From Chloroflexota bacterium (lineage in GTDB: Bacteria; Chloroflexota; Dehalococcoidia; DSTF01; JACRBR01): 64,000 nucleotides of DNA. The position numbers and the translations under genes are program-made. This document shows, one piece after another, positions 16,139-61,285 of the stretch. Under the pieces are notes generated by a model. It saw only the letters and a list, made by a program, of their open reading frames with translations, was not told the origin of the DNA and searched no databases. How positions within the stretch are numbered: the first letter of the stretch is position 1; the number at the start of each line of letters is the position of its first letter. The stretch spans positions 38,574-102,573 of the forward strand of contig JAGWOC010000002.1 in NCBI GenBank assembly GCA_028872875.1. Reading direction: 5' to 3'.

Positions 16139-16428
16139 GGCGGGGCTCCTGACATCGGGCGGCGCGATCCGGCGCCGGGCTGCTGTTCCGCGTGCATCAC
16201 GACCGGTCTGTCAGGCGCTGGGGCAAAGGCCCTCAGCGCGATTCCGGCAGGCGGATCACTGGGCCCTTTCCTCGTGGAAGGTCGCTCCGGTCTCGCTCGC
16301 GACTGCTCCCTGGGAGCCCGTTGGGCCCGAGCTGAGGCGTTCTGGAGCAACGTCACTATACACCCGGCCGATCGCGCCAAAACAGGGTCGTTTGGGCGCA
16401 ATTGGACGGACGCCTGGCCCCTGCCCCG

Positions 16429-16455
16429 TACGGGTCTGGCCGCCCGTGCCGATAC
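16429..16455 (+). promoter_or_regulatory. Candidate sigma28-type promoter for the GGDEF gene
   Basis: TACG-N15-GCCGATAC. Confidence 0.55.
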
Positions 16456-16478
16456 TCGTGAGGGTAGGGGGTATCGCT

Positions 16479-17300
16479 GTGAGTGCACGTGCGCCGCGCC
16501 GCATCCGCCTCGTCGAAGGCGGCGGAGAATCCCCGCTGATCACCGCCGAGGGGCGCCCGAGCGAGCGCAAGCGGGGCATCTCGTGGGTGCCGGTGACGCT
16601 GCGGCTGCTCACCATCGCCTGGGGCGGCACGATCATCGCCGCCCTGCTCGACACGTTCGGGCTCGTGCCGCACCTGCCGTTCCTGCTCGCCATCGGCATG
16701 ACCGGCTTCCTCGTCGCGGCGATCTTCGTGCTCACCCGCGACGAGAGCCGGGAGCGCGAGGACGCGGCGGAATCCGACCCCGACGGCGACGCTGCCCACG
16801 ATCTGCTCACCGAGCTGCCGACGTTCAACCACTTCGCCCGCAGGCTCAACGACGAGTTCACCCGCGCCCGCCGCATGGGACGCCCGGTGTCCGTCGTGCT
16901 GGTCGATGTCAACAACCTCACGGCAGTGAACCGGGAATACGGCGTGCGCGCTGGAGACGCCGTGCTCCGCCACGTGGCGCGCACGATCGATGCCACGAAG
17001 CGCTTCAACGACGTGGTGGCCCGGCTCGGGGACGACGAGTTCGGGGTGCTGCTGATCGACACCGGCGAGGAGGGGATCGCCGCCTTCATCGAGCGGCTCG
17101 AAGATCGCCTCGCGCGCGAATCGGCCATGGCCGAGGTCGGTGGCCGCGACGTCTCGCTGTGGGCTGGCGTCTGCTCCGGCAGCGCCTGCGGCACGCCCGA
17201 CATCATGGGTGCTGAGAGGTTGCTGGAGGCGGCGATGGCGAGCCTCAACCAGGCGAAGCAGGACCGTGAACGCCGCCGCCGGATGTGGCTGTCGGCGTAG
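16479..17300 (+). CDS. Membrane-anchored degenerate GGDEF-domain protein
   Basis: Two TM helices, then LTELPTFNHF, VDVNNL, YGVRAGD and RFNDVVARLGDDEF; GTG start inferred. Confidence 0.85.
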   Translation: MSARAPRRIRLVEGGGESPLITAEGRPSERKRGISWVPVTLRLLTIAWGGTIIAALLDTFGLVPHLPFLLAIGMTGFLVAAIFVLTRDESREREDAAESDPDGDAAHDLLTELPTFNHFARRLNDEFTRARRMGRPVSVVLVDVNNLTAVNREYGVRAGDAVLRHVARTIDATKRFNDVVARLGDDEFGVLLIDTGEEGIAAFIERLEDRLARESAMAEVGGRDVSLWAGVCSGSACGTPDIMGAERLLEAAMASLNQAKQDRERRRRMWLSA

Positions 17301-17396
17301 CCGTCCCCGCGCCGTCCTCGTCGGCATCACCTCGTCGGCATCACAAGGATCCGGCCCCGGCCCGGAGGTCCTGCTGTTCGTCCGGGAGCCGGCCGG

Positions 17397-17909
17397 TCAG
17401 GCCGCGCGGCCGATGCCAAGGCGGGCGGCAGCCGCGTTCGCGTCCATCACCTCGCCCCGCGACAGAAGCTGGATGAGCGTGCCGATCCGCAGGATCTCCG
17501 CCAGCCCGCCGCCATCGCGGCCACGGTCGGTGAGCGTCTGGTCCAGGCGCGCCTCGTAGCCCGCGCGGAGTTGCGCCCGCAGCTCGCCACATCGGGCTGC
17601 CTCGGTCCAGACCTCGATCAGCACCCGGCCGAGGGCCGCAGGCGGGAGCGAGAGTGCCCCGTCGTCCGCCTCGAACGGCGGCAGGAGCGCGTTGCTGCGG
17701 ATCAGGCGCTCGACCACGCCCGCGAGCACGGATGACTTCGATGGGAAGTGGTGGTAGAGTCCGCCCTTGGAGCAGCCGGCCGCAAGGGCGACGTCGTCCA
17801 TCGACGCCGCGCTGAACCCCTTGAGCGCGAAGACGGCCAGCGCCGCCTGGACGATCTGGTCCCGGGTGCGCTGGGTGCGGAGTGCCTGCCGGTTCGGTTG
17901 GCTCAGCAT
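17397..17909 (-). CDS. TetR/AcrR family regulator (TetR-1)
   Basis: HTH GFSAASMDDVALAAGCSKGGLYHHFPSK. Confidence 0.92.
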   Translation of the reverse strand: MLSQPNRQALRTQRTRDQIVQAALAVFALKGFSAASMDDVALAAGCSKGGLYHHFPSKSSVLAGVVERLIRSNALLPPFEADDGALSLPPAALGRVLIEVWTEAARCGELRAQLRAGYEARLDQTLTDRGRDGGGLAEILRIGTLIQLLSRGEVMDANAAAARLGIGRAA

Positions 17910-17923
17910 ACGTACTATGTGAT

Positions 17924-17950
17924 GTATCGGCCGGGAGGGGCCGATCCGCA
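17924..17950 (-). promoter_or_regulatory. Candidate sigma28-type promoter for TetR-1
   Basis: Minus strand TGCG-N15-GCCGATAC, ending 14 nt before ATG. Confidence 0.5.
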
Positions 17951-18000
17951 GGCGTAGCAGGCCATCCGGCAGGAAATTTTCCGGATCTTGTCAAACCCTC

Positions 18001-18029
18001 TTGACAGGACGCCCCCGCTGGCGCAGAAT
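18001..18029 (+). promoter_or_regulatory. Sigma70-type promoter for the mini-gene
   Basis: TTGACA-N17-CAGAAT. Confidence 0.8.
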
Positions 18030-18031
18030 CA

Positions 18032-18049
18032 ATACCGACGAGTCGGTAT
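18032..18049. promoter_or_regulatory. Operator-like perfect inverted repeat at the predicted TSS
   Basis: ATACCGAC-GA-GTCGGTAT. Confidence 0.65.
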
Positions 18050-18101
18050 AGCTCGGGCCCCGGGTGGCACGAGGGCAACGCAAGGGTCAGGAGGAGTAGC
18101 C

Positions 18102-18128
18102 ATGGTTCAGCGCGCGACTTGGGGCTAG
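18102..18128 (+). CDS. Putative 8-aa micropeptide MVQRATWG
   Basis: AGGAGGAG SD, then ATG GTT CAG CGC GCG ACT TGG GGC TAG, lying between a consensus promoter and a terminator. Confidence 0.6.
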   Translation: MVQRATWG

Positions 18129-18149
18129 GCGCCCCGGAAACAAACCAAG

Positions 18150-18180
18150 GAGGGTCTCTCTGAGGCCCTCTTTTCCATTT
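18150..18180 (+). terminator. Intrinsic terminator, probably bidirectional
   Basis: GAGGGTCTC-TCT-GAGGCCCTC followed by TTTTCCATTTT; A-rich run on the 5' side serves the convergent HD-GYP gene. Confidence 0.8.
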
Positions 18181-18199
18181 TCTCACCGGGGGGGTGCGG

Positions 18200-19711
18200 T
18201 CACGCCGCCTGCTTCGGTGCGGCGGCGGCGTGGTGTTCTGTCGGCGCCTCGTGGTCGGCCATGCGGATCTTGACGATCTCGTCGAAGGCGAGCAGGAAGG
18301 CCTGGACGCAGCGCGGGTCGAACTGGCTGCCGCTGCACTTGATGATCTCGTCCCGCGACACCTCGGCCGAGAGCGCGCGCCGGTAGGGGCGGTCGGACGT
18401 CATCGCGTCGAACGTGTCCGCCAGCACGAAGATGCGCGCGCCGAGCGGGATCTCGTCCGCCAGCAGCCCCAGCGGGTAGCCCTTGCCGTCGAAGCGCTCG
18501 TGGTGCGCCAGGACGAGGCTGGCGGCGCCCGACAGGAACGAGATGTCCTTGAGCATGTCGTGGCCGATCTTCGGGTGGCGGCGCATGTCCACCCACTCCT
18601 CGTCGGTGAGCGGCCCCGGCTTGTGCAGGATCGTGTCGGAGACGCCGATCTTGCCGACGTCGTGCAGGAGGGCGCCCCGCTGCATGTCCAGCCACTCGTC
18701 GGTGCCGGGCGCGATGCCCATGTGGTAGGCGATCTCCATCATGTACTTGGCGACGCGGATCGAGTGGCCCTTCGTCTCGCGGTCGCGCGCGTCGAGCGCG
18801 GAGACGAGGGCCTCGAGCGTGCCGTCGTACGTCCGCCGGAGCTCGTCGGCCATCTGCAGGATGTCGGTGTTCGCCTTCTGGAGGTCCTGGTTCGTCTTCC
18901 GCAGCTCCTCGACATTCTCGGCCGTCTTGTCGATGTACTGCTTCATGGAGAGCCGTACCAAGAGCGGCGGCGCCGCGAAGGCTAGGATGCCGAGCACGCC
19001 CACGCCCGCGTACCCCACCGCCAGCGCCGCGCCCAGAAGTGCCGCCACGACGTAGTGTGGCAGCAGCCAGGCGAAATCGTCGTGCCACACGGCGTAGGTC
19101 TGCCGTCGCGTCGCCAGGCTCGCCGCGGTCGCAACTAGCGTGGTGTTAACCGCGTAATACACGACAACGGTCGCGGCAGTCACCGCGACGAGCAGGGCGG
19201 AGGTCGTCATGTGGCCGCCCATGAGGAGCCAGGCCACGCCCGCGATCGTGAGGTTGGAGAGCGTCACGGACCCGATGTCGAACAGCCGTTTGTACCACGG
19301 CGCGCCCGTCTCGTGGTCAGCCAAGAGGGCGGCGACCGGGCCGACGATGACGGCGCCGGCCGGGCCGAACAGCAGCGCGACCGCGAAGTCGCCGACCATA
19401 CCCAGCGAAATCGTCGTATCCCCGTAGATCGAGATCCGCGTCCTGCCCGCCGCGACGGCGAGCACGCCCAGGATGACAAATCCGGTCAGGTCCGACGTGT
19501 TGAGCTGGGGCGCGAAGTACGCCACTGCCGCCAGCCCCAGCGCGAAGACGAGCAGGACGTAGACCAGCGCCGGCCGCGGCAGGCGCGCCTCGGCCTCTGC
19601 GGCGGCGCCAGGCTGGACCGGCAGCGGGACGACGTTGGACGGCGCGTCGCCGCGCACGGCCCGCGTCTCGTCGCGGCCGTCGGCCGGTTCTTCGAAGGCT
19701 CGGTTCAGCAT
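18200..19711 (-). CDS. HD-GYP c-di-GMP phosphodiesterase with multi-TM N-terminal sensor domain
   Basis: GHSIRVA, LLHDVGKIG, HHERFDGKGYP and DAMTSDRPYR motifs; about 6-7 TM helices N-terminally. Confidence 0.93.
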   Translation of the reverse strand: MLNRAFEEPADGRDETRAVRGDAPSNVVPLPVQPGAAAEAEARLPRPALVYVLLVFALGLAAVAYFAPQLNTSDLTGFVILGVLAVAAGRTRISIYGDTTISLGMVGDFAVALLFGPAGAVIVGPVAALLADHETGAPWYKRLFDIGSVTLSNLTIAGVAWLLMGGHMTTSALLVAVTAATVVVYYAVNTTLVATAASLATRRQTYAVWHDDFAWLLPHYVVAALLGAALAVGYAGVGVLGILAFAAPPLLVRLSMKQYIDKTAENVEELRKTNQDLQKANTDILQMADELRRTYDGTLEALVSALDARDRETKGHSIRVAKYMMEIAYHMGIAPGTDEWLDMQRGALLHDVGKIGVSDTILHKPGPLTDEEWVDMRRHPKIGHDMLKDISFLSGAASLVLAHHERFDGKGYPLGLLADEIPLGARIFVLADTFDAMTSDRPYRRALSAEVSRDEIIKCSGSQFDPRCVQAFLLAFDEIVKIRMADHEAPTEHHAAAAPKQAA

Positions 19712-19755
19712 GCTACCGCCAGATGCGCATATCGCCGCCGGAAGGGCCCGTAGTA

Positions 19756-19782
19756 GTATCGGCAGCGGCGCGGCGGGCCTGA
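19756..19782 (-). promoter_or_regulatory. Candidate sigma28-type promoter for the HD-GYP gene
   Basis: Minus strand TCAG-N15-GCCGATAC, ending 44 nt before ATG. Confidence 0.55.
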
Positions 19783-19795
19783 GCCGCCGGGAGGC

Positions 19796-20521
19796 TCAGG
19801 CGGCCTGGTCGATCTCGGCGGCGAGCTGGCGCCGGAGCGTCGCCAGGATGCGCTTGTGAAGCTGGCAGACCCGGGACTCCGAGAGCCCGAGCATCTCGCC
19901 GATGACGTGGAACGGCCTGGATTCAGCGTATCGGAGCTTCAGGATGGCCCGGTCTCGCGCGTTCAGGTCGTGCAGCACCACATCGAGCATCGCAAGCGAG
20001 GCATTGTGGTCGGCCGCCTTGGCGGGGTCACCGGACTCGTCTTCGTCCACCGGGTCCAGCGCGGGGCCGTTCTCGCCACCCCGGTCCTGGAGCGCGTGCT
20101 CCAGCGAGATGAACTTCGAGTTGGCGTGGCGCAGGATGCCGTGGAGCTGGTCCGCAGGCATGCCGAGGCGGACGGCGACCTCCTTCGTCGTCGGCCAGCG
20201 GCCGAGCGATGCCGCGAGCTCCTGCGACGCGTGCTCGACCTCCCGCGTGCTCTTGCGCAGCGAGCGCGGCAACGGGTCCATCTTGCGGATGGCGTCCAGG
20301 ATTGAGCCGCGGATGCGCCGCACGGCGAAGCTCGCGAAGCTCGTGCCGCGCTCGGCGTCGAAGGCGTCGATCGCCTGGATCAGGCCCTCGGTGCCGTAGG
20401 CGAGCGCGTCCTCGCGGTCGAGCCCCAGGGTCTTCTGGTTGTCCGTGGACATGCGGCTGACGACGAAGGCCACGAGCGGCATGTGCCGCATGATCATCTC
20501 CTGGCGGTCTGGACTGCGCAT
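19796..20521 (-). CDS. fliA: FliA/WhiG (sigma28-family) RNA polymerase sigma factor
   Basis: GLIQAIDAFDAERGTSFASFAVRRIRGSILDAIRKMDPLPRSLR and IGEMLGLSESRVCQLH; GGGGGAG SD 6 nt before ATG 20521. Confidence 0.9.
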   Translation of the reverse strand: MRSPDRQEMIMRHMPLVAFVVSRMSTDNQKTLGLDREDALAYGTEGLIQAIDAFDAERGTSFASFAVRRIRGSILDAIRKMDPLPRSLRKSTREVEHASQELAASLGRWPTTKEVAVRLGMPADQLHGILRHANSKFISLEHALQDRGGENGPALDPVDEDESGDPAKAADHNASLAMLDVVLHDLNARDRAILKLRYAESRPFHVIGEMLGLSESRVCQLHKRILATLRRQLAAEIDQAA

Positions 20522-20617
20522 GAGAAGCTCCCCCGCAACGCGGAACCTGACTTCGCGCCGGAAGCTGCGACAGGGGAGATGCGCGGGAGACGCTGTCGAG
20601 CGTTGGGGGCTCGAGGT

Positions 20618-20697
20618 CTTCGGCGGCCCGGCCATCCGCGCGTACGGCGGACCCGTGGCTTTGCGTCCTCGCCTTTCGGCGAGTTTGCCCTGTCGGA
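20618..20697 (-). ncRNA. c-di-GMP-I (GEMM-I) riboswitch aptamer
   Basis: Minus strand CGACAGGGCAAACTCGCC-GAAA-GGCGAGGACGCAAAGCCACGGGTCC...GGATGGCCGGGCCGCCGAAG, matching the canonical GGGCAAAC / GAAA / GACGCAAAGCC pattern. Confidence 0.92.
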
Positions 20698-20845
20698 ACC
20701 TCTGACGATGACATCCAGGGCATCCTGCCGGGCCACGGGCGAGTCGTTCGCCCTCCATCAGCCTTAACGCTGCCGGGGGCCATGTGTTACAGGCCGGGGG
20801 GATCTTTTTTCGTCTGGGCGCAATGTGGGAGATTGTCAAGGGGTA

Positions 20846-20904
20846 TTGGCAAATGGGAGATCCTGTTGCATACTGACTTCGACGCAGGGGGCTGCGGACG
20901 ATAC
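20846..20904 (+). promoter_or_regulatory. Tandem promoters for TetR-2: sigma70-like and sigma28-like
   Basis: TTGGCA-N17-CATACT (20846-20874) and TTCG-N15-GACGATAC (20878-20904). Confidence 0.55.
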
Positions 20905-20936
20905 TCGCGGGGCGGGATCACGCCGGAGGGGGCGCC

Positions 20937-21551
20937 ATGGACCGATTCGAGCAACGCAAGCTGACCCGGGCACGGCTGATCGACGGTGCGCTGAAGCTGT
21001 TTTCGGCGAACGGCTACGACCACGCCACCATCGACGACATCTCGCAGGAGGCGGGCTACTCGAAGGGCGCCTACTACTTCCACTTCTCCACGAAGGAGGA
21101 CATCCTCCTCGAGCTGCTCCGCCGCTGGAGCGACGACCGCGCGTCCGGGCTCGCCGCGGTTGGCGGCAGCGACGGCGCCCGCGACCTGCGCGCGACGCTC
21201 GAGGCGCTCTTCTCCTACGAGCGCGAGCCGCGCTGGCCGGGCATGCTGCTGGAGTTCTGGGCGCAGTCGATGCGGAACGACGAGGTGAAGAAGCGCCTCG
21301 CCCAGGTGTACGGCGCCTGTCGCCAGGAGCTGGCGGCGTCATTCGCGGATGCCGCCCAGGCCGGCGCGGTGCGCGCCGGGTCCGCCGACGAGGCCGCGGG
21401 TATCGCGCTGGCGGCGCACGATGGGTATGTGGTACAGCTTGCCATCGGCTCGCCGGCCGGCAAGCTGATGACGCCCGCACAACTCGCCGACGCGCTCCTC
21501 TCGCCCCTCGAGGCCGCTCCTTCCGGGAAGCGTCGCGCAGCCGCGGTCTAG
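20937..21551 (+). CDS. TetR/AcrR family regulator (TetR-2)
   Basis: GYDHATIDDISQEAGYSKGAYYFHFSTKE; GGAGGGGG SD. Confidence 0.93.
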   Translation: MDRFEQRKLTRARLIDGALKLFSANGYDHATIDDISQEAGYSKGAYYFHFSTKEDILLELLRRWSDDRASGLAAVGGSDGARDLRATLEALFSYEREPRWPGMLLEFWAQSMRNDEVKKRLAQVYGACRQELAASFADAAQAGAVRAGSADEAAGIALAAHDGYVVQLAIGSPAGKLMTPAQLADALLSPLEAAPSGKRRAAAV

Positions 21552-21608
21552 CGCCGGCCGCGCCCAATCCGTAGGACGCCCGGCGCCTCCCGGGCCGGTG
21601 GGAGTTCC

Positions 21609-22607
21609 GTGCGCGCCCTGATCCTCGCACCCTTCGCGGACCGTTCGCTCGCGCGCTTGCGCCGCCTCGGTGCGGTCACATACGAGAGCTGGACCGAGAC
21701 CGGACGCATCCACGACCCGGCGGAGCTGGGCGCGCGCATCGCCGCGATTGGCGCCGACGTGCTGGTCGTGGAAGCCGATTTCGTCTTCGAGGAGCTGTTC
21801 GAGGCGGCGCCAGACCTGCGCCTCGTGGGCGTGTGCCGCAACGCCCTCAACCAGATCGACATCGAGAGCGCGACGGACCACGGCGTCGTCGTCACGCACG
21901 CTCGCGGGCGCAACACGAACGCCGTCGCCGAGCTGACGCTCGGGCTGATGTTCGCGCTCGCGCGCCAGATCCCGCGGGCGCACGCGCTCGTGGCGGGCGG
22001 CGGCTGGCGCGACCCGGTGGCGGGCTACCGCACGCTGCGCGGAACGGAGATCGCGGGCTCGACCGTCGGCGTCATCGGCTGCGGCCAGATCGGACGGGCG
22101 GTGACCCGGAAGTGCGTCGCCCTCGGCGCCCGTGTGCTGGCGTACGACCCGCTCGTGCCGCCGCGGCGGCTGCGGGCGATCGGCGCCACGCCGGCGCCGC
22201 TCGCCGGCCTCGCCCGCGCGTCGGACTGGGTGACGCTGCACGTGCCGGCGGATGAGGGCACGGCGGGGCTCATCGACGCGGCGTTTCTTGGCCGGATGCG
22301 GCGGACGGCGTACGTGATCAACACGAGCGGCGGATCCGTGGTGGACACCGGTGCGCTCGTCGCCGCCCTGTCGTCGGGGCGCATCGCTGGCGCGGCGCTG
22401 GACGTGTTCGACGGGCAGCCGCTGCCCCTCAGTAGCCCGTTGCTCTCGGCGCCGAACGTGATCCTGACGCCGCACATCGGTGGCGCGACGGCAGAAACCG
22501 TCGCGCGGCAGTCGCGGATGATGACCGGCGAGATCGAGCGGCTGCTGACTGGCCGCCGCCTGCGTTACGCCGTGAACCCGGAGGTCGACCCCGCCCGTGT
22601 CCGCTGA
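21609..22607 (+). CDS. D-isomer 2-hydroxyacid dehydrogenase family protein (atypical catalytic residues)
   Basis: GVIGCGQIG, LHVP and LTPHIGG motifs; has NTSGG and DVFDGQP in place of the usual N.xRG and DVFxxEP. Confidence 0.88.
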   Translation: MRALILAPFADRSLARLRRLGAVTYESWTETGRIHDPAELGARIAAIGADVLVVEADFVFEELFEAAPDLRLVGVCRNALNQIDIESATDHGVVVTHARGRNTNAVAELTLGLMFALARQIPRAHALVAGGGWRDPVAGYRTLRGTEIAGSTVGVIGCGQIGRAVTRKCVALGARVLAYDPLVPPRRLRAIGATPAPLAGLARASDWVTLHVPADEGTAGLIDAAFLGRMRRTAYVINTSGGSVVDTGALVAALSSGRIAGAALDVFDGQPLPLSSPLLSAPNVILTPHIGGATAETVARQSRMMTGEIERLLTGRRLRYAVNPEVDPARVR

Positions 22608-24063
22608 GCGCATCCTCGTCATCGACGCCGGCACGAGCAGCCTGCGCGCGGTCGCGGTATCGGCGAGCGGCGAGACCTCCGTGATCGCCACTGAGGCGTG
22701 GGACATGCGTACGCCCGCGGACGCAGAGCCGTTCGGACGCGAGCTCGACGGGCCAGCGATCGAGGGGTCGCTCGGCACGCTCTTGCGCGCGGCCGGCCGT
22801 ACCGGCGCATGGTCCGGCGTCGCGTTTGCCGGGCAGCGCGAAGGCGTCGTGTTCGTCGACGAAGGCGGTGCCGCTGTCTGCGTATCGCCGAACGTCGATG
22901 CGCGCGCGTCGGCCGAGGGCATGGCGCTCGACGCGGCGCACGGGCGGGAGGTCTATCTCGCGACCGGCCACCTGCCGTCGCTGATGCAGGCGCCGGTGAA
23001 GTACGCGTGGCTGCGGCGCCATCGCCCGGCTGGCGCCGCGCGGGTGCGACGTGTACTGCCGCTGGCCGACTGGCTCGCCTCGCTCGTGACGCGCGAGGCG
23101 GTGGCGAGCCGCAGCCTGGCGGCCGAGAACGGCCTGCTCGACGTGCGCACGGGTGCGCCGCCCGCGTACCTCGACGACACTGGTGTTCCTCCAGCGATCC
23201 TTGCGCCGGTCGTCGAGGACGGGACGGTGGTGGCGCGTGTGCGCGGCGGAGACCTGGCGGGTACGCCGGCCGTGCTGGCGGGCGCCGATACGCAGTGCGC
23301 GCTCGTCGGTCTCGGTGCGGTCGCAGCGGGCGATTGCGGCGTGCCGGCGGGCTGGAGCGCGCCGCTCCAGCTCGTGACGTCGCAGCCGGTGTTCGATGAG
23401 GAGATGCGGACGTGGACGGGCCCGCACGTCGCGCCCGGGCGGTTCGTCCTGGAGTCGAACGCGGGCGAGGCCGGGCGCGCCTGGGTGTGGGCGTGCGGGC
23501 TGGCCAACGTCGCCGTGGCGGATGCCGAAGGCCTGGCGCGGGCGACGCCGCCCGGCTCGCACGACGTGATGGCCGTGCTCGGACCGCGGGTAATGCGCGC
23601 GTCGCGGATGAGCGCCGGGCTGGGTGCGCTGACGCTGCCGTTGCCGCTGGTGATGTCGTCGCCGGACGCTGGCGACATGCTGCGCGCGGTGCTGGAATCG
23701 ATGGCGTACGCGCTGCGCGCGAACCTTGAGCAGATCGAAGCGGTGGCGGATACATCGATTGCGTCGCTGCGCCTGGGCGGCGGTCTGTCACGAAACGCGA
23801 CGTTCGCGCAGATCCTCGCCGACGTGGCCGACAGGGCGATTGAGGTCAGCGGCGCGCCCGAGACGACGGCGCTGGGCGCGGCGGTGCTCGCGTCGGTCGC
23901 GCTGGGGCTGCACGCGTCGCTCGACGACGCCGTTGGGGCGATGTGCCGTGGGCGGCGCACCGTACGGCCCGGGCTGGCGGCGTCGGCCGCGTACGAGGAC
24001 TACTATGGACGCTGGTGCGCGATGGCGGACGCGCTGGAGCGCATGGCGGCGGAGGGAGCATGA
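22597..24063 (+). CDS. FGGY carbohydrate kinase, LsrK-like
   Basis: VIDAGTSSLRA, QREGVVFVD...NVDARA, GADTQC, LGGGLS and ETTALGAA motifs. Confidence 0.88.
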   Translation: MSAERILVIDAGTSSLRAVAVSASGETSVIATEAWDMRTPADAEPFGRELDGPAIEGSLGTLLRAAGRTGAWSGVAFAGQREGVVFVDEGGAAVCVSPNVDARASAEGMALDAAHGREVYLATGHLPSLMQAPVKYAWLRRHRPAGAARVRRVLPLADWLASLVTREAVASRSLAAENGLLDVRTGAPPAYLDDTGVPPAILAPVVEDGTVVARVRGGDLAGTPAVLAGADTQCALVGLGAVAAGDCGVPAGWSAPLQLVTSQPVFDEEMRTWTGPHVAPGRFVLESNAGEAGRAWVWACGLANVAVADAEGLARATPPGSHDVMAVLGPRVMRASRMSAGLGALTLPLPLVMSSPDAGDMLRAVLESMAYALRANLEQIEAVADTSIASLRLGGGLSRNATFAQILADVADRAIEVSGAPETTALGAAVLASVALGLHASLDDAVGAMCRGRRTVRPGLAASAAYEDYYGRWCAMADALERMAAEGA

Positions 24064-24725
24064 GCGAGACGTACGAGGCAGAGCGCCGTGAGGTGCTGCG
24101 AGCGGTCGAGCGGATCGTCGCCGCCGGGCTGGTCGCGGGATCGAGCGGCAACGTCAGCCTGCGCATCGCGACGGCGGACGGGGAGCTGATCGCCGTGACG
24201 GCGAGCAGCGTCCCGTACCATCGCTTCACGCTCGACGACGTGCTGGTGGTCGACTTCGACATCGAGCCGGTCGTGGGCGAGGGTGTGCCGTCGAGTGAGT
24301 CGCTGCTGCACGTCGCGGTGTACCATGCCCGGCCAGACGTGAGGGCGGTGGTCCACACGCACTCCGTGTACGCGAGCGCATTCGCCGCGGCGGGCCGGCC
24401 GATCCTGCCGGTACTCGACGAGCAGGTGGTGATCCTCGGCGGCGCCGTGAAGGTGGCGGAGTACGGCCCGTCGGCCAGCGAGGAGCTGGCGGCACGCTGC
24501 GTCGCCGCGCTCGGCGAGCGCGCGGCGGTGCTGTTGCGCAATCACGGCGTCGTTGGCGTCGGACGCGACCTCGACGAGGCGCTCGCTGCCGTCGAGCTGA
24601 CCGAACGTGCCGCGAAGGTGCAGGTTCTCAGTGCGGTGCTGGGCGGCGCGCAGGAGCTGCCACCAGGCGTCGTGCGGACCGAGCAGGCCGTGTACCGCAT
24701 GCTGCACGGGCTTGGGCCAGAGTAA
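24060..24725 (+). CDS. Class II aldolase (FucA-like)
   Basis: GSSGNVS, PSSESLLH, VHTHS and LRNHG metal motifs; ATGA overlap with the kinase. Confidence 0.9.
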   Translation: MSETYEAERREVLRAVERIVAAGLVAGSSGNVSLRIATADGELIAVTASSVPYHRFTLDDVLVVDFDIEPVVGEGVPSSESLLHVAVYHARPDVRAVVHTHSVYASAFAAAGRPILPVLDEQVVILGGAVKVAEYGPSASEELAARCVAALGERAAVLLRNHGVVGVGRDLDEALAAVELTERAAKVQVLSAVLGGAQELPPGVVRTEQAVYRMLHGLGPE

Positions 24726-27665: not shown

Positions 27666-27784
27666 ACGAGCCTGAGTGTATCGGCGGCCCGTCGGCGCGG
27701 GCAAGGAATCGTGGCGCCGCCGCACGCATCTGCCCGTAAGCGGGGCCGCTGGTATACTGCGCCGAATCGACGACCGAGGTGCCG

Positions 27785-29722: not shown

Positions 29723-29730
29723 TTCCCCAA

Positions 29731-29860
29731 ACCGCATAAGGCCGAATCCGCGGACGCGGAGCGGGGGAACCATCGGTGGGGTGAATCTCGCGCGACGGCG
29801 CGAGTAGGTCAGCCTTCTCAGACCGAACCCGACAGCTAACCTCGCAGGCACGTGAGAGGC
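29731..29860 (+). ncRNA. c-di-AMP (ydaO/yuaA) riboswitch
   Basis: GCCGAATCC...GAGCGGGGGAACCA...TGGGGTGAATC...TAGG...CCGAACCCGACAGCTAACCTCGCAGGC, matching the ydaO consensus blocks. Confidence 0.92.
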
Positions 29861-29873
29861 GACGACGCTCGAT

Positions 29874-29902
29874 GAAGGGCAGGGTCGCTCCCTGTCCTTC
29901 TT
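29874..29902 (+). terminator. Terminator-like hairpin forming the riboswitch expression platform
   Basis: GAAGGGCAGGG-TCGCT-CCCTGTCCTTC-TT; short U-tract. Confidence 0.6.
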
Positions 29903-29954
29903 GGTGTCCCTCGCGCTGCTGTTCGACCGGCATGGATCGCAGGAGGCCGGCGTT

Positions 29955-32219
29955 TTGACGACCATCGCCCCGCAGCCCGCCGCACCGTCGCTGCCGTACC
30001 CGTCCGAGGTCCCGCCGGCGACCGGACGCCTTCTTCTCGTCGCCAACCGGCTGCCCATCACCGCCAGGATCGGCGACGATGGTGCGATCAGCGTCGAGCC
30101 GTCATCGGGCGGGCTCGCCACGGGGCTCTGGGGTCCGCATCAGCGCTCCGGCGGCCTCTGGATCGGCTGGCCCGGCGAGCTGCAGCTCGACCCACGGCAG
30201 AAGCGGCAGCTCGACGACAAGCTCGCCGACCTCCGCGCGCTACCCGTCTACCTCACGCAGGACGAGGTCAACGAGTACTACGAGAACATGGCGAACGGCG
30301 TCCTCTGGCCGCTGTTTCACTACCTCATCGACCAGCTCCCGAACGAGCTCGGAGACTGGAATGTCTTCCGCGGCGTCAACGAGAAATTCGCCCGCGCCGT
30401 CATCGACAACTACCGCTCCGGAGACCTGATCTGGGTGCAGGACTACCACCTGATGCTCGTGCCGGCGATGCTGCGTCGCGCCCTCCCCGATGCCCGCATC
30501 GGGTTCTTCCTCCATGTGCCGTTCCCCTCGTCCGAGGTGTTCAGCGTGCTGCCCTGGCGCGAGGAGATCCTCCAGGGCCTGCTCGGCGCCGACCTCATCG
30601 GCTTCCACACGCCCGGCTACCTCCGCCACTTCAGCACGTCGCTCCGCCGCGTGCTTGGCGTCGACGTCGATGTTGACGCGCTCTGGCAGGACGAGCGCCG
30701 GGTGCGGCTCGGCGTCTTCCCGATGGGCGTCGATGCCGCCCGCTGGGCGCGCTCTGCCGACAGCCCCGAGGTCGCGCGCGAGGTCGCTTCCCTGTGCGAG
30801 GAGGCCGGCGGCCGCAAGATCATCGTCGGCATCGACCGGCTCGACTACACGAAGGGCATCCCGCGGCGCCTCGTCGCCATCGACCGGCTGTTCGCCGACC
30901 ATCCGGAGCTCTGTGACCGCGTGCGTGTCGTGCAGGTCACCGTGCCGTCGCGCGAACACGTCGAGCAATACGCCGAGTTCAAGCGCCGCATCGACGAGCT
31001 GGTCGGCCGCATCAACGGCACCCACGCCACCGCGAGCTGGATGCCCATCCATCACATGTACCGCGCGATCTCCCAGGCGGAGGTCTGCGCGCTCTATCGT
31101 GCCGCCGACGTGATGCTCGTGACGCCCGTCCGCGACGGCATGAACCTCGTCGCCAAGGAGTTCGTCGCCACCCGCACCGACGAAGACGGCGTGCTGATCC
31201 TCAGCGAGTTCGCCGGCGCCGCCGCCGAGATGGGCGAGGCGCTGCACATCAACCCGTTCGACACAGAGCGCCTGGCCGCGCGCATCAATGATGCGCTGTC
31301 CATGCCCGAGCCCGAACGCAAAGCCCGCATGCGCGCCCTCCGCTCACGCGTGCTGACCCACGACGTGCACCGCTGGGCCGAGTCGTTCATCGGCGCGCTG
31401 GCGGAGACCGGCCCGGCGTACCGCCGTTCGCAGCGCGCGTCCGCTCCGTCCGATCTCGCGTCGATTGTCGAATGTGTCCGCCGGGCGCCCCAGGCGCTGC
31501 TGGTCCTCGACTACGATGGCACGCTCGTCCCCTTCGCCCCGACGCCCGACGAGGCCGTCCCGGATCCTGACCTGCGCGACCTTCTGAGCGCGCTGGCGGC
31601 GCGGCCCGGCCTGCACGTGCACGTGGTCAGCGGACGCACCCGCGCTTCGCTTGACCGCTGGCTCGGCTGCCTTCCCGTCGGCCTGCACGCGGAGCACGGC
31701 CTCTGGTCACGCCTTGCGCCGGGCGCGCCCTGGCGCATCCTGCGCCCCGTGTCGCAGGAGTGGAAGGAGAAGGTCCGCCCGATCATGGAGCACTTCGTCG
31801 GCGCGACCCGCGGCACCTTCATCGAGGAGAAGACCGGCTCGCTCGCGTGGCACTACCGGCTGGCGAAGGCAGACTTCGCGCCGGAGACCGATTTCGGCGA
31901 GTACCAGGCGAAGGAGTTGCGCCTGCTGCTCGGCGAGATGCTGAGCAACGCCCCCGTCCAGGTCCTCGCCGGCAACAAGGTCGTGGAAGTGCGGCCGCAG
32001 GGCGTCCACAAGGGGATGATCGTGCCCGTGCTCCTCTCGACGATCGAGGATCAGGCGCCCATCCTCGTGGTCGGCGACGACCGCACCGACGAAGACATCT
32101 TCGCTGCCCTCCCGGATGACGCGCTCACGGTGCACGTCGGGTCGGGCGTCAGCCTCGCCCAGTTCCGCGTCGATACGCCCGCCGACGTCCGCCGCCTCCT
32201 CCGCGCCATCGTCGCCTGA
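29955..32219 (+). CDS. otsA: Bifunctional trehalose-6-phosphate synthase/phosphatase (OtsA-OtsB fusion)
   Basis: [34 protein letters not shown] and LDYDGTL HAD motif; TTG start after AGGAGG. Confidence 0.95.
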
Positions 32220-53324: not shown

Positions 53325-53765
53325 ATGGGTCACGAAGAAGCGCTGGCGGCGGTGCCGCTGTTCTCGCAGCTTAGCCGGAAGGACCTCACCCGTCTCAGCC
53401 GCGCCGTCGTGGAGCGCGACTACAAGAAGGGCCAGACGATCGTGAAGGAGGGCGAGCAGGCCGTCGCCTTCTTCGTCATCATCAAGGGCAAGGTCGAGGT
53501 CACGCACGCCAGCGGCGCGCGCGCGCAGAAGCTGAATGACCTCGGCGCGGGCGAGGCGTTCGGCGAGATGGCGCTGCTCGATGGCGGGCCTCGCGCGGCG
53601 ACCGTGAAGGCGCTGGAGGAGACGAAGTGCCTCGTCCTCTCGCGCTGGGACTTCGTCGCCGAGCTCCGCACCAACCCGCACATCGCGGTCGCGATGCTGC
53701 CGATCCTCAGCCGCCGCCTGCGCGAGGTGGAGGCGAAGCTCGCAAAGCAGGCGGCCACGCACTAG
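53325..53765 (+). CDS. Stand-alone cyclic nucleotide-binding domain protein
   Basis: IVKEGE and FGEMALLDGGPRAATV phosphate-binding cassette; no HTH. Confidence 0.9.
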   Translation: MGHEEALAAVPLFSQLSRKDLTRLSRAVVERDYKKGQTIVKEGEQAVAFFVIIKGKVEVTHASGARAQKLNDLGAGEAFGEMALLDGGPRAATVKALEETKCLVLSRWDFVAELRTNPHIAVAMLPILSRRLREVEAKLAKQAATH

Positions 53766-61008: not shown

Positions 61009-61285
61009 CTCTTGAGCATAGCACAGCGGTCAGAAAGTCAATCGGATCGAGTATCGGCGGTGCGCTGGCACCATGCAGCGGGAGAACCCTGACGGGATTT
61101 CCGAAGCCGGGCCAGGGCGAGGGGCTGTCCGGCCGGAGTGTGGCGGGCCAGAGCGCCGCTGGCGTCCCGCCCGCCGGGCCCCAGGGGGCGTCGCGGCGCT
61201 CACCGCGCTACGTCGCCTGTGCGGGACGCGACGAGGCCCGGACGGCAAGTCCGGGCCCCGTTCTCGGTCCACCGTGTGGGCGACG

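Follow-up and report, generated by a model that had tools for sequence, protein, structure and literature searches.

The window analyzed here, 64,000 nucleotides from a member of the Dehalococcoidia (Chloroflexota; GenBank assembly GCA_028872875.1, contig JAGWOC010000002.1, positions 38,574 to 102,573), contains at 16.4-21.6 kb a sigma factor gene cluster made up of a cyclic diguanylate (c-di-GMP) riboswitch aptamer, a gene for a sigma-28-class sigma factor, genes for an HD-GYP protein and a GGDEF protein, two TetR genes and an open reading frame (ORF) of eight codons. The cluster probably represents a conserved regulatory cassette in which a riboswitch-gated sigma factor would drive a c-di-GMP phosphodiesterase (PDE), a c-di-GMP receptor and both TetR regulators, and in which a state of low c-di-GMP would be self-reinforcing. 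Each of the parts that a preliminary description of the window had listed for the cluster was found at or near the position claimed for it.

In the proposed circuit, a promoter of the extracytoplasmic function (ECF) type would give rise to a leader RNA bearing a c-di-GMP-I aptamer. With c-di-GMP bound, the aptamer would keep its own 5' strand and a downstream hairpin would form; the freed hairpin would serve as an intrinsic terminator in most relatives and as a stem sequestering the Shine-Dalgarno sequence in the window, and no sigma factor would be made. At low c-di-GMP, the aptamer 5' strand would pair with the 5' arm of the hairpin and sigma factor would be made, probably together with the HD-GYP protein by read-through. 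The sigma factor would act on TACGG-N14/15-GCCGATAyT promoters before the genes for the HD-GYP protein, the GGDEF receptor, TetR1 and TetR2, and TetR1 would probably repress the adjacent promoter of the micro-ORF via an 18-bp palindrome. Because the sigma factor would raise the level of an enzyme that degrades c-di-GMP, and c-di-GMP would shut off the sigma factor, the loop is expected to reinforce the low-c-di-GMP state; bistability is possible. The identity of the ligand, the direction of the switch, the reading of the boxes by the sigma factor and the activity of the enzyme are predictions from sequence. The predicted positive-feedback wiring from riboswitch to sigma factor to PDE, put forward in the preliminary description, is well supported by the comparative evidence. 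The circuit had also been proposed to be self-contained, which is not supported: the cluster is without an active diguanylate cyclase (DGC), and the sigma leader stands behind an ECF-like promoter, not a sigma-28 box.

The comparison set consisted of 19 other species-level loci (L001-L019) of metagenome-assembled genomes (MAGs) from one scan of species-representative genomes, giving 20 genomes with the window; all 19 come from MAGs labelled Chloroflexota, Dehalococcoidia or Chloroflexia. The sigma factor of the window is 77-98% identical to those of the 19 relatives, as against 46-77% for the products of the neighboring genes (outside the closest MAG). A database search with the sigma protein returned 916 proteins at E <= 1e-20, with 77-100% identity among the 120 matches listed, and metagenome DNA runs containing the locus derive from mine drainage, sediment and groundwater. 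The sequence features of the cassette and their conservation are direct observations. The ECF-like promoter, the aptamer, the sigma gene and the HD-GYP gene behind a sigma-28-type promoter are present in 20 of 20 genomes. The near-universal gene order, determined by tblastn, is aldolase / FGGY kinase / dehydrogenase / TetR2, then divergently sigma / HD-GYP / TetR1, then convergently GGDEF. Unrelated genes lie upstream in L017 (DUF2630, PHP) and 3' of the HD-GYP gene in L007 (HNH, DinB, release factor); promoter motif, aptamer, sigma gene and HD-GYP gene are retained in both, and since the block survives these breaks in synteny it is regarded as the invariant core. The synteny check proposed in the preliminary description thus finds the core co-conserved throughout, with TetR1, the micro-ORF and the GGDEF gene as frequent companions (16 of the 17 loci reaching that far), as well as TetR2 (18 of the 19 relatives).

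Leader riboswitch and sigma factor

The aptamer occupies the same leader position before the sigma gene in all 20 genomes. In the window it matches RF03167, the c-di-GMP-I-GGC model, with 69.1 bits (gathering score 59), and a lower-scoring overlapping match of the same clan, probably RF01051, is also above its own threshold. Among seven relatives scanned with Rfam, RF03167 was the best model in six and RF01051 in one (L008, 57.2 bits against a gathering score of 35). These covariance-model scores place the element in clan CL00126, the class of RF01051. The consensus G of RF03167 in GACGC-G-AAG (GACGCGAAG) is replaced by A in the window (GACGCAAAG) and in all 19 relatives, which read GACGCAA(A/C/T)G throughout. 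Because of this A at the variant position the element was not filed as a GGC variant, although RF03167 scores best. We take the A to be the canonical A47 of Vc2, with 'GGC' presumably denoting the identities at positions 20, 47 and 92; the aptamer segments ACAGGGCAAAC and GACGCAAAGCC likewise resemble what we assume to be the canonical sequence (G20, A47, C92, Vc2 numbering). We regard the element as one of the c-di-GMP-I riboswitches, its pocket being of the canonical type and its predicted ligand c-di-GMP.

Between aptamer and start codon, 16 relatives contain a GC-rich hairpin of 10-14 bp followed by a more or less U-rich tail, typically AUGCCGCCUGUCG-loop-CGACAGGCGGCAU and then UUUUUGUUGU. 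This terminator has a 5' arm, GCCUGUCG, complementary to the aptamer 5' strand, CGAACAGGC; its loop contains a conserved CCUCUG, and a conserved CAGAGG lies immediately 5' of the aptamer. For the duplex of the 21-nt 5' segment with arm plus loop, energies between -12 and -23 kcal/mol are predicted, and z relative to shuffled sequences falls mostly between -2 and -3.4. Matched triple substitutions occur in L007 and L012 (aptamer ACGGG, arm CCCGU, 3' arm ACGGG). The complementarity of the terminator 5' arm and loop to the aptamer 5' strand points to an OFF-switch layout.

The window, L001, L002 and L010 are without the terminator stem and the U-rich tail; in their leaders a CUCCCC-type segment pairs with the Shine-Dalgarno sequence. 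When the window leader was folded with the aptamer forced, the Shine-Dalgarno sequence was wholly paired. The competing duplex CGACAGGG:CCCUGUCG, formed by the aptamer 5' strand and the sequestor arm in its extended form (-22.4 kcal/mol, z -3.1), would release it. Full-length minimum-free-energy folds are non-discriminating for the terminator-type leaders and ambiguous for the window Shine-Dalgarno sequence. A position in the leader together with a platform that competes with the aptamer is what characterizes a riboswitch, and the riboswitch claimed for the sigma leader was recovered in each of the 20 genomes. Its platform is of the predicted OFF type throughout, a terminator in the 16 relatives and Shine-Dalgarno sequestration in the other four genomes.

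The sigma protein matches TIGR02479 (FliA_WhiG) best by far, the next family being SigB/F/G with 117.7 bits. Its best solved relatives are Streptomyces WhiG (6pfv, 130.5 bits), Escherichia coli FliA (6pmi, 109.1) and Aquifex FliA (81.4). The group 3 architecture (sigma2-sigma3-sigma4, approximately 240 aa) and the closest structures, which are those of the flagellar clade, place the protein in the FliA/WhiG class. Each of the 20 genomes has the motif TGTAAC-N16-CGTTA, with conserved spacing, at the corresponding position upstream of the sigma leader; the window contains it only once, and there is hardly any other match in the loci. From the AAC/CGT pattern of the motif we infer that it is read by an ECF sigma factor, which adds a predicted outside input to the circuit. 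No sigma-28-type box was found in the leader of the sigma gene itself.

Sigma-28-type promoters and the genes behind them

Sigma-28-like boxes had been reported before four genes of the cluster, and they were found as GCCGATACT at 16448 (+) and 19763 (-), GCCGATAC at 17931 (-) and GACGATACT at 20897 (+). Conserved promoters of this type precede the HD-GYP gene in 20 of 20 genomes and the GGDEF gene in 16 of 16; for TetR1 and TetR2 the same holds in most genomes. The consensus in the relatives is TACGG-N14/15-GCCGATAyT, and in intergenic alignments the promoters form conserved islands within otherwise diverged sequence. The T of the -35-like element T[AT]CGG lies 18-19 nt upstream of the -10 G (14-15 nt spacing), equal to the spacing of the canonical sigma-28 consensus TAAA-N15-GCCGATAA (PMC8325347). 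The HD-GYP gene is preceded by CTACGG-N15-GCCGATATT in relatives and by CTCAGG-N14-GCCGATACT in the window, the type being kept in all 20 genomes. The GGDEF promoter, CCGTACGGG-N13-GCCGATACTA, is kept in 16 of 16 although the upstream neighbor gene differs. Before TetR1, CT(A/G)CGG-N14/15-GCCGAT(A/C)nT is found approximately 15-20 nt ahead of the start codon in most relatives. The TetR2 promoter, CATACT...GTCGGA-N13/14-GCCGATACT in relatives (five strict 9-mers and approximately nine more close matches; GACGATACT in the window), is less strictly conserved than the other three.

GCCGATA is commoner in the window than chance would give, with 12 occurrences as compared to 4.65 +/- 2.3 in simulations. 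The strict form GCCGATA[CT]T was counted 38 times in the 416,646 bases of the window and the 19 loci (both strands), and 35 of these sites lie at the four promoters: 18 before HD-GYP (of 20 genomes), 11 before GGDEF, five before TetR2 and one before TetR1. The three remaining 9-mers agree with the approximately 3.6 expected from base composition by our own arithmetic.

Further boxes and motifs were recorded outside this set. A fifth box, CTGCAT-N14-GCCGATACT at 61057 (-) (window 61020-61080), precedes a LipB-like gene heading a lipoate/2-oxoacid dehydrogenase string; it is probably a chance occurrence, with a good sigma-70 promoter, TTGACT-N17-TATGCT, just downstream. A box at 27685 (-) before a tRNA is better read as part of a sigma-70 promoter. 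A conserved TTGACAAG stands back to back with an opposite-strand -35 box at 17985-17992 and approximately 20828-20835 of the window and at the same places in the loci, thus in both divergent regions (TetR1/mini-ORF and sigma/TetR2); it has no convincing -10 element and could be the site of a shared regulator.

The HD-GYP protein contains intact HD (LLHDVGK) and HHERFDGKGYP motifs, conserved across the orthologues, in line with the HHExxDGxGYP signature of HD-GYP PDEs. Approximately 6-7 hydrophobic segments lie within residues 42-257, and the N-terminal part has no Pfam domain; the transmembrane domain presumably adds a signal at the level of the enzyme. The gene starts 84 nt behind the sigma gene with no terminator between them, an arrangement in which read-through probably places it under direct control of the riboswitch as well. 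A hairpin equivalent to the terminator shared with the mini-ORF transcript is present in relatives. In L015 (12300-12700) the gap between HD-GYP and TetR1 is enlarged by approximately four tandem copies of a GC-rich hairpin-like unit of approximately 45 nt (...GACGACGTGGGCTGAA(A/G)GCCCGCGCTACGGTGGCA...) that recalls repeats of the repetitive extragenic palindromic (REP) type.

All 16 orthologues of the GGDEF protein read RLGDDEF and DVNNL, where an active cyclase would have the active-site motif GG[DE]EF and the metal/transition-state motif DxDxFK. An RxxD I-site lies five residues upstream of the signature in all 16 orthologues (RFND in the window, RYND, RYSD or RYHD). The protein also has hydrophobic segments in its N-terminal part and a basic tail, AKQ(E/D)RERRRR, that is invariant. 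Judged by these motifs, the GDDEF membrane protein is most likely a c-di-GMP receptor and not a cyclase.

The micro-ORF was found in all 18 loci that bear the palindrome, as M(T)FR[VI]xW* in most and as MVQR[AV][TS]WG* in the subgroup of the window. In relatives a GGAGG always stands ahead of it, and its promoter is always TTGACA-N17-TATAAA, with the palindrome ATACCGACnnGTCGGTAT near +1. The residues stay constant while the codons vary, arginine being encoded by each of the four CGN triplets (CGC, CGG, CGA, CGT) and valine and isoleucine by several, which suggests selection on the translated peptide. The palindrome is perfect over 18 bp, conserved and present in one copy per locus at the +1 of the mini-ORF promoter, as expected of the operator of a divergent TetR gene. 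Since TetR1 is divergent from this promoter it is the likely binder of the palindrome, through which it probably represses the micro-ORF. Classical attenuation of a downstream gene by the mini-ORF was rejected on two grounds: the ORF faces the 3' end of the HD-GYP gene, and with 18 nt between its stop codon and the hairpin a ribosome terminating there would be too distant to cover the stem.

Cluster layout and window content

The features of the cluster are summarized in Table 1. On the minus strand, the order of transcription is TGTAAC-N16-CGTTA motif, aptamer, sigma gene, 84-nt spacer, HD-GYP gene, hairpin terminator and TetR1. The gap between HD-GYP and TetR1 measures 290 nt and carries on its plus strand promoter, palindrome, a strong Shine-Dalgarno sequence, mini-ORF and terminator. 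The GGDEF gene (+) is convergent with TetR1, and TetR2 (+) is divergent from the riboswitch leader.

Table 1. Positions of the features of the sigma factor gene cluster in the window
Feature	Position	Strand	Evidence and remarks
ECF-type promoter-like motif TGTAAC-N16-CGTTA	20765..20791	-	upstream of riboswitch leader; same place in all 20 genomes
c-di-GMP-I-clan riboswitch aptamer	20618..20698	-	RF03167, 69.1 bits, E 2.9e-14
Expression platform	20522..20617	-	CUCCCC(UGUCG) at approximately 20568-20578 can pair with aptamer 5' strand CGACAGGG or with Shine-Dalgarno GGGGGAG (20529-20535)
FliA/WhiG-type (sigma-28 class) sigma factor, 241 aa	19796..20521	-	Sigma70 r2/r3/r4
Sigma-28-type promoter of HD-GYP, CTCAGG-N14-GCCGATACT	19755..19783	-	CCGATA core invariant in 20/20
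Membrane-sensor HD-GYP c-di-GMP phosphodiesterase (predicted), 503 aa	18200..19711	-	PF13487, 107.8 bits
Hairpin terminator common to convergent mini-ORF transcript and HD-GYP	18147..18173	+	12-bp stem, then T run
Mini-ORF MVQRATWG* with Shine-Dalgarno AGGAGGAG	18102..18128	+	micro-ORF form conserved in all 18 loci with the palindrome
Sigma-70 promoter TTGACA-N17-CAGAAT, then 18-bp palindrome ATACCGACGAGTCGGTAT (18032-18049), probable TetR operator	18001..18049	+	promoter scan
Sigma-28-type promoter of TetR1, CTGCGG-N14-GCCGATAC	17924..17951	-	conserved in most relatives
TetR-family regulator 1, divergent from mini-ORF	17397..17909	-	PF00440, 56.1 bits
Sigma-28-type promoter of GGDEF, GTACGGG-N13-GCCGATACT	16428..16456	+	conserved in 16/16 genomes
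Degenerate-GGDEF membrane protein, 273 aa	16479..17300	+	PF00990, 94.8 bits
TetR2 tandem promoters: sigma-70 TTGGCA-N17-CATACT, then sigma-28-like box GACGATACT (20897-20905)	20846..20905	+	promoter scan and relatives
TetR-family regulator 2, BetI-type C-terminal domain	20937..21551	+	Pfam; heads dehydrogenase / FGGY kinase / aldolase string

A total of 59 ORFs were called in the window by GC3, of which 56 were scanned against Pfam. Outside the cluster all Pfam matches were metabolic or housekeeping (tricarboxylic acid cycle, purine synthesis, 2-oxoacid dehydrogenases, lipoate, trehalose). None of the 56 ORFs matched a family connected with flagella, pili, chemotaxis or sporulation, in agreement with the earlier statement that flagellar and sporulation genes are missing from the window.

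Behind TetR2, genes for a 2-hydroxyacid dehydrogenase, an FGGY kinase and a class II aldolase-like protein form a string (21609-24725, +) that is syntenic with the cassette in 18 of the 19 relatives, so that its transcription may start at the dual sigma-70/sigma-28 promoter ahead of TetR2. The neighbor beyond the GGDEF gene varies. In the window and in L001 and L002 it is isocitrate dehydrogenase, and in the others a CxxC protein of no known family. The latter, a CxxC-pair protein of approximately 180 aa starting with MQIDWDKTIDDIF and with no Pfam match, is encoded divergently from GGDEF (L008:14312-14899, +) and found at the same place in most relatives (L003-L019). A cyclic di-AMP (ydaO-type) riboswitch (94.8 bits) lies directly 5' of a fused trehalose-6-phosphate synthase/phosphatase gene (GT20 and Trehalose_PPase; 29730-32219). 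At 53325-53765 (+), a gene for a stand-alone cyclic-nucleotide-binding (cNMP_binding) protein of 146 aa adjoins two glyoxalase-fold genes.

Alternative readings and comparison with known systems

Several observations weigh against the riboswitch-gated feedback cassette. The best Rfam model of its aptamer is the GGC variant RF03167. The aptamer is near-invariant across the 19 relatives, with compensatory changes in only 2 of 20 pairs; this invariance leaves almost no covariation, so support for the aptamer comes from the model scores and the fixed position. In the unconstrained minimum-free-energy fold of the window leader the Shine-Dalgarno sequence is still partly paired, which makes the translational version of the switch less certain than the terminator version. 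The sigma protein (regions 2, 3 and 4) reaches 183.5 bits against TIGR02479, just below the cut-off of 189.6, and the -35 element T[AT]CGG differs from the canonical TAAA. The cluster contains no active DGC, and the source of c-di-GMP would accordingly lie elsewhere. Sequence words of the locus were absent from three metatranscriptome runs of the same study as the metagenome DNA runs, the only RNA runs found.

One point on which the explanations differ is how far the action of the sigma factor extends. There is close to an even chance that it is a general sigma-28 factor whose large regulon of flagellar, pilus or chemotaxis genes lies elsewhere and that the cassette is the input node of a motility programme, the HD-GYP enzyme and the receptor being ordinary late-class members like pdeH and ycgR for E. 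coli FliA; the wiring would be the same, and only the self-containment is disputed. In the basal orders of Dehalococcoidia, flagellar gene sets are the ancestral condition, and genera of cooler habitats have lost them only in part (PMC10284905); the sigma factor may for this reason also govern motility or pilus genes at other places in the genome. Besides DGC and PDE genes, type IV pili are under the control of WhiG in Rubrobacter (PMC8325347), and the far stronger conservation of the sigma factor (77-98%) than of its neighbors (46-77%) is as expected with many targets. On the other hand, no motility or pilus gene was found in the 64-kb window or among the checked flank genes of L008, L017 and L007, and outside the cluster the promoter 9-mer occurs at chance rate only (417 kb). 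It is rather unlikely that the cassette is truly self-contained, with the four flanking transcription units as the sole targets and the c-di-GMP level and TetR-controlled genes as output. All conserved boxes found so far are local and the core block stays intact where synteny is broken on either side of it, but the sequence covered amounts to only approximately 0.4 Mb from 20 genomes and the cluster has no source of c-di-GMP. To our knowledge, sigma-28-class factors with purely local regulons are not known, which also counts against self-containment. Improbable, too, is an autonomous bistable toggle with a second layer of control, in which the dead GGDEF protein would be a c-di-GMP-armed anti-sigma factor (an RsiG/FlgM analogue) and the TetR1-repressed micro-ORF (6-8 residues, M-T-F-R-V-x-W) an output or feedback element, either as a peptide signal or as a convergent transcript interfering with HD-GYP when the sigma factor is off.

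The two recognition steps of the circuit can be questioned as well. There is little likelihood that the ligand of the RNA is some molecule besides c-di-GMP, as has been proposed for variant classes, or that the RNA acts as an ON switch. The GGC variant is the best-scoring model and the full-length thermodynamic folds are ambiguous, but the G that distinguishes RF03167 (GACGCGAAG) is A in the window and all relatives, the lower-scoring match of the same clan exceeds its own gathering score in the window, RF01051 is the best model in L008, and the complementarity between aptamer 5' strand and terminator 5' arm follows the classic design of an OFF switch. That the GCCGATAyT elements are not promoters of this sigma factor at all, but TetR operators or sites of another factor that lie nearby by coincidence, is very improbable. 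The departure of the -35 part from TAAA would agree with it; the -10 part, however, matches the sigma-28 hallmark GCCGATAA at 7 or 8 of 8 positions, a second conserved element stands at the canonical spacing of 14-15 nt, and the sites are oriented with the genes approximately 15-45 nt ahead of their start codons. Nor are the boxes palindromic, whereas the cluster has a clear palindrome of the TetR type at another place.

All parts of the feedback cassette are known, and the comparison suggests that their arrangement is new, with a riboswitch directly on a sigma gene that adjoins the predicted c-di-GMP targets of the same sigma factor. The preliminary description had considered the architecture undescribed in this lineage; the arrangement was indeed not found in the literature searched, nor was any described c-di-GMP regulatory system in Chloroflexota. 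Both halves of the loop have precedents, and WhiG of Rubrobacter and FliA of E. coli are examples of sigma-28 factors driving c-di-GMP enzymes. Many uncultured Chloroflexota of soil, sediment and mine drainage share the conserved module, and the clade shows one aptamer joined to two different expression platforms. It would constitute a readable positive-feedback module of five kilobases, small enough to be rebuilt for a test of bistability.

In Clostridioides difficile, the class I c-di-GMP riboswitch Cd1 is a transcription-terminating OFF switch on the flgB operon, which contains sigD. As there, high c-di-GMP would prevent the synthesis of a sigma-28-class factor via a class I riboswitch. The C. 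difficile switch governs a long flagellar operon with sigD far downstream, whereas here the sigma gene comes first and no flagellar genes are linked; the visible targets of the sigma factor are genes of c-di-GMP turnover and reception, which closes the predicted feedback loop. E. coli FliA drives the PDE gene pdeH (yhjH) and the receptor gene ycgR and thereby keeps c-di-GMP low when sigma-28 is active. One c-di-GMP PDE and one c-di-GMP receptor under sigma-28 would be common to both systems, although an EAL enzyme and a PilZ receptor in E. coli correspond to an HD-GYP enzyme and a degenerate GGDEF protein here. In E. coli, fliA is under FlhDC and FlgM and not under c-di-GMP, so that the loop is open at the sigma gene. 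With the GEMM-I class (RF01051, CL00126; e.g. Vc2 of Vibrio cholerae) the element shares the aptamer architecture and the conserved core; it differs in that the downstream gene encodes a sigma-28-class factor, in its Chloroflexota lineage, and in a platform that alternates between terminator and Shine-Dalgarno sequestration within one clade.

In Streptomyces and Rubrobacter, the c-di-GMP-armed anti-sigma factor RsiG silences WhiG in an RsiG-(c-di-GMP)2-WhiG complex (PMC8325347; PDB 6pfv, 6pfj), and in Rubrobacter both type IV pilus genes and five DGC/PDE genes lie behind promoters of the WhiG type (PMC8325347). As in the RsiG-WhiG system, high c-di-GMP would silence a WhiG/sigma-28-type factor, and WhiG is the closest relative of the window sigma factor in the PDB. 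The cluster contains no RsiG-like gene, its -35 element is TACGG where that of the WhiG promoters is TAAA, and the protein anti-sigma factor that acts after translation is replaced here by a predicted RNA switch on the transcription or translation of the sigma factor. The cassette would thus be a third route of c-di-GMP control over a sigma-28-class factor, besides RsiG and the operon-level switch of C. difficile.

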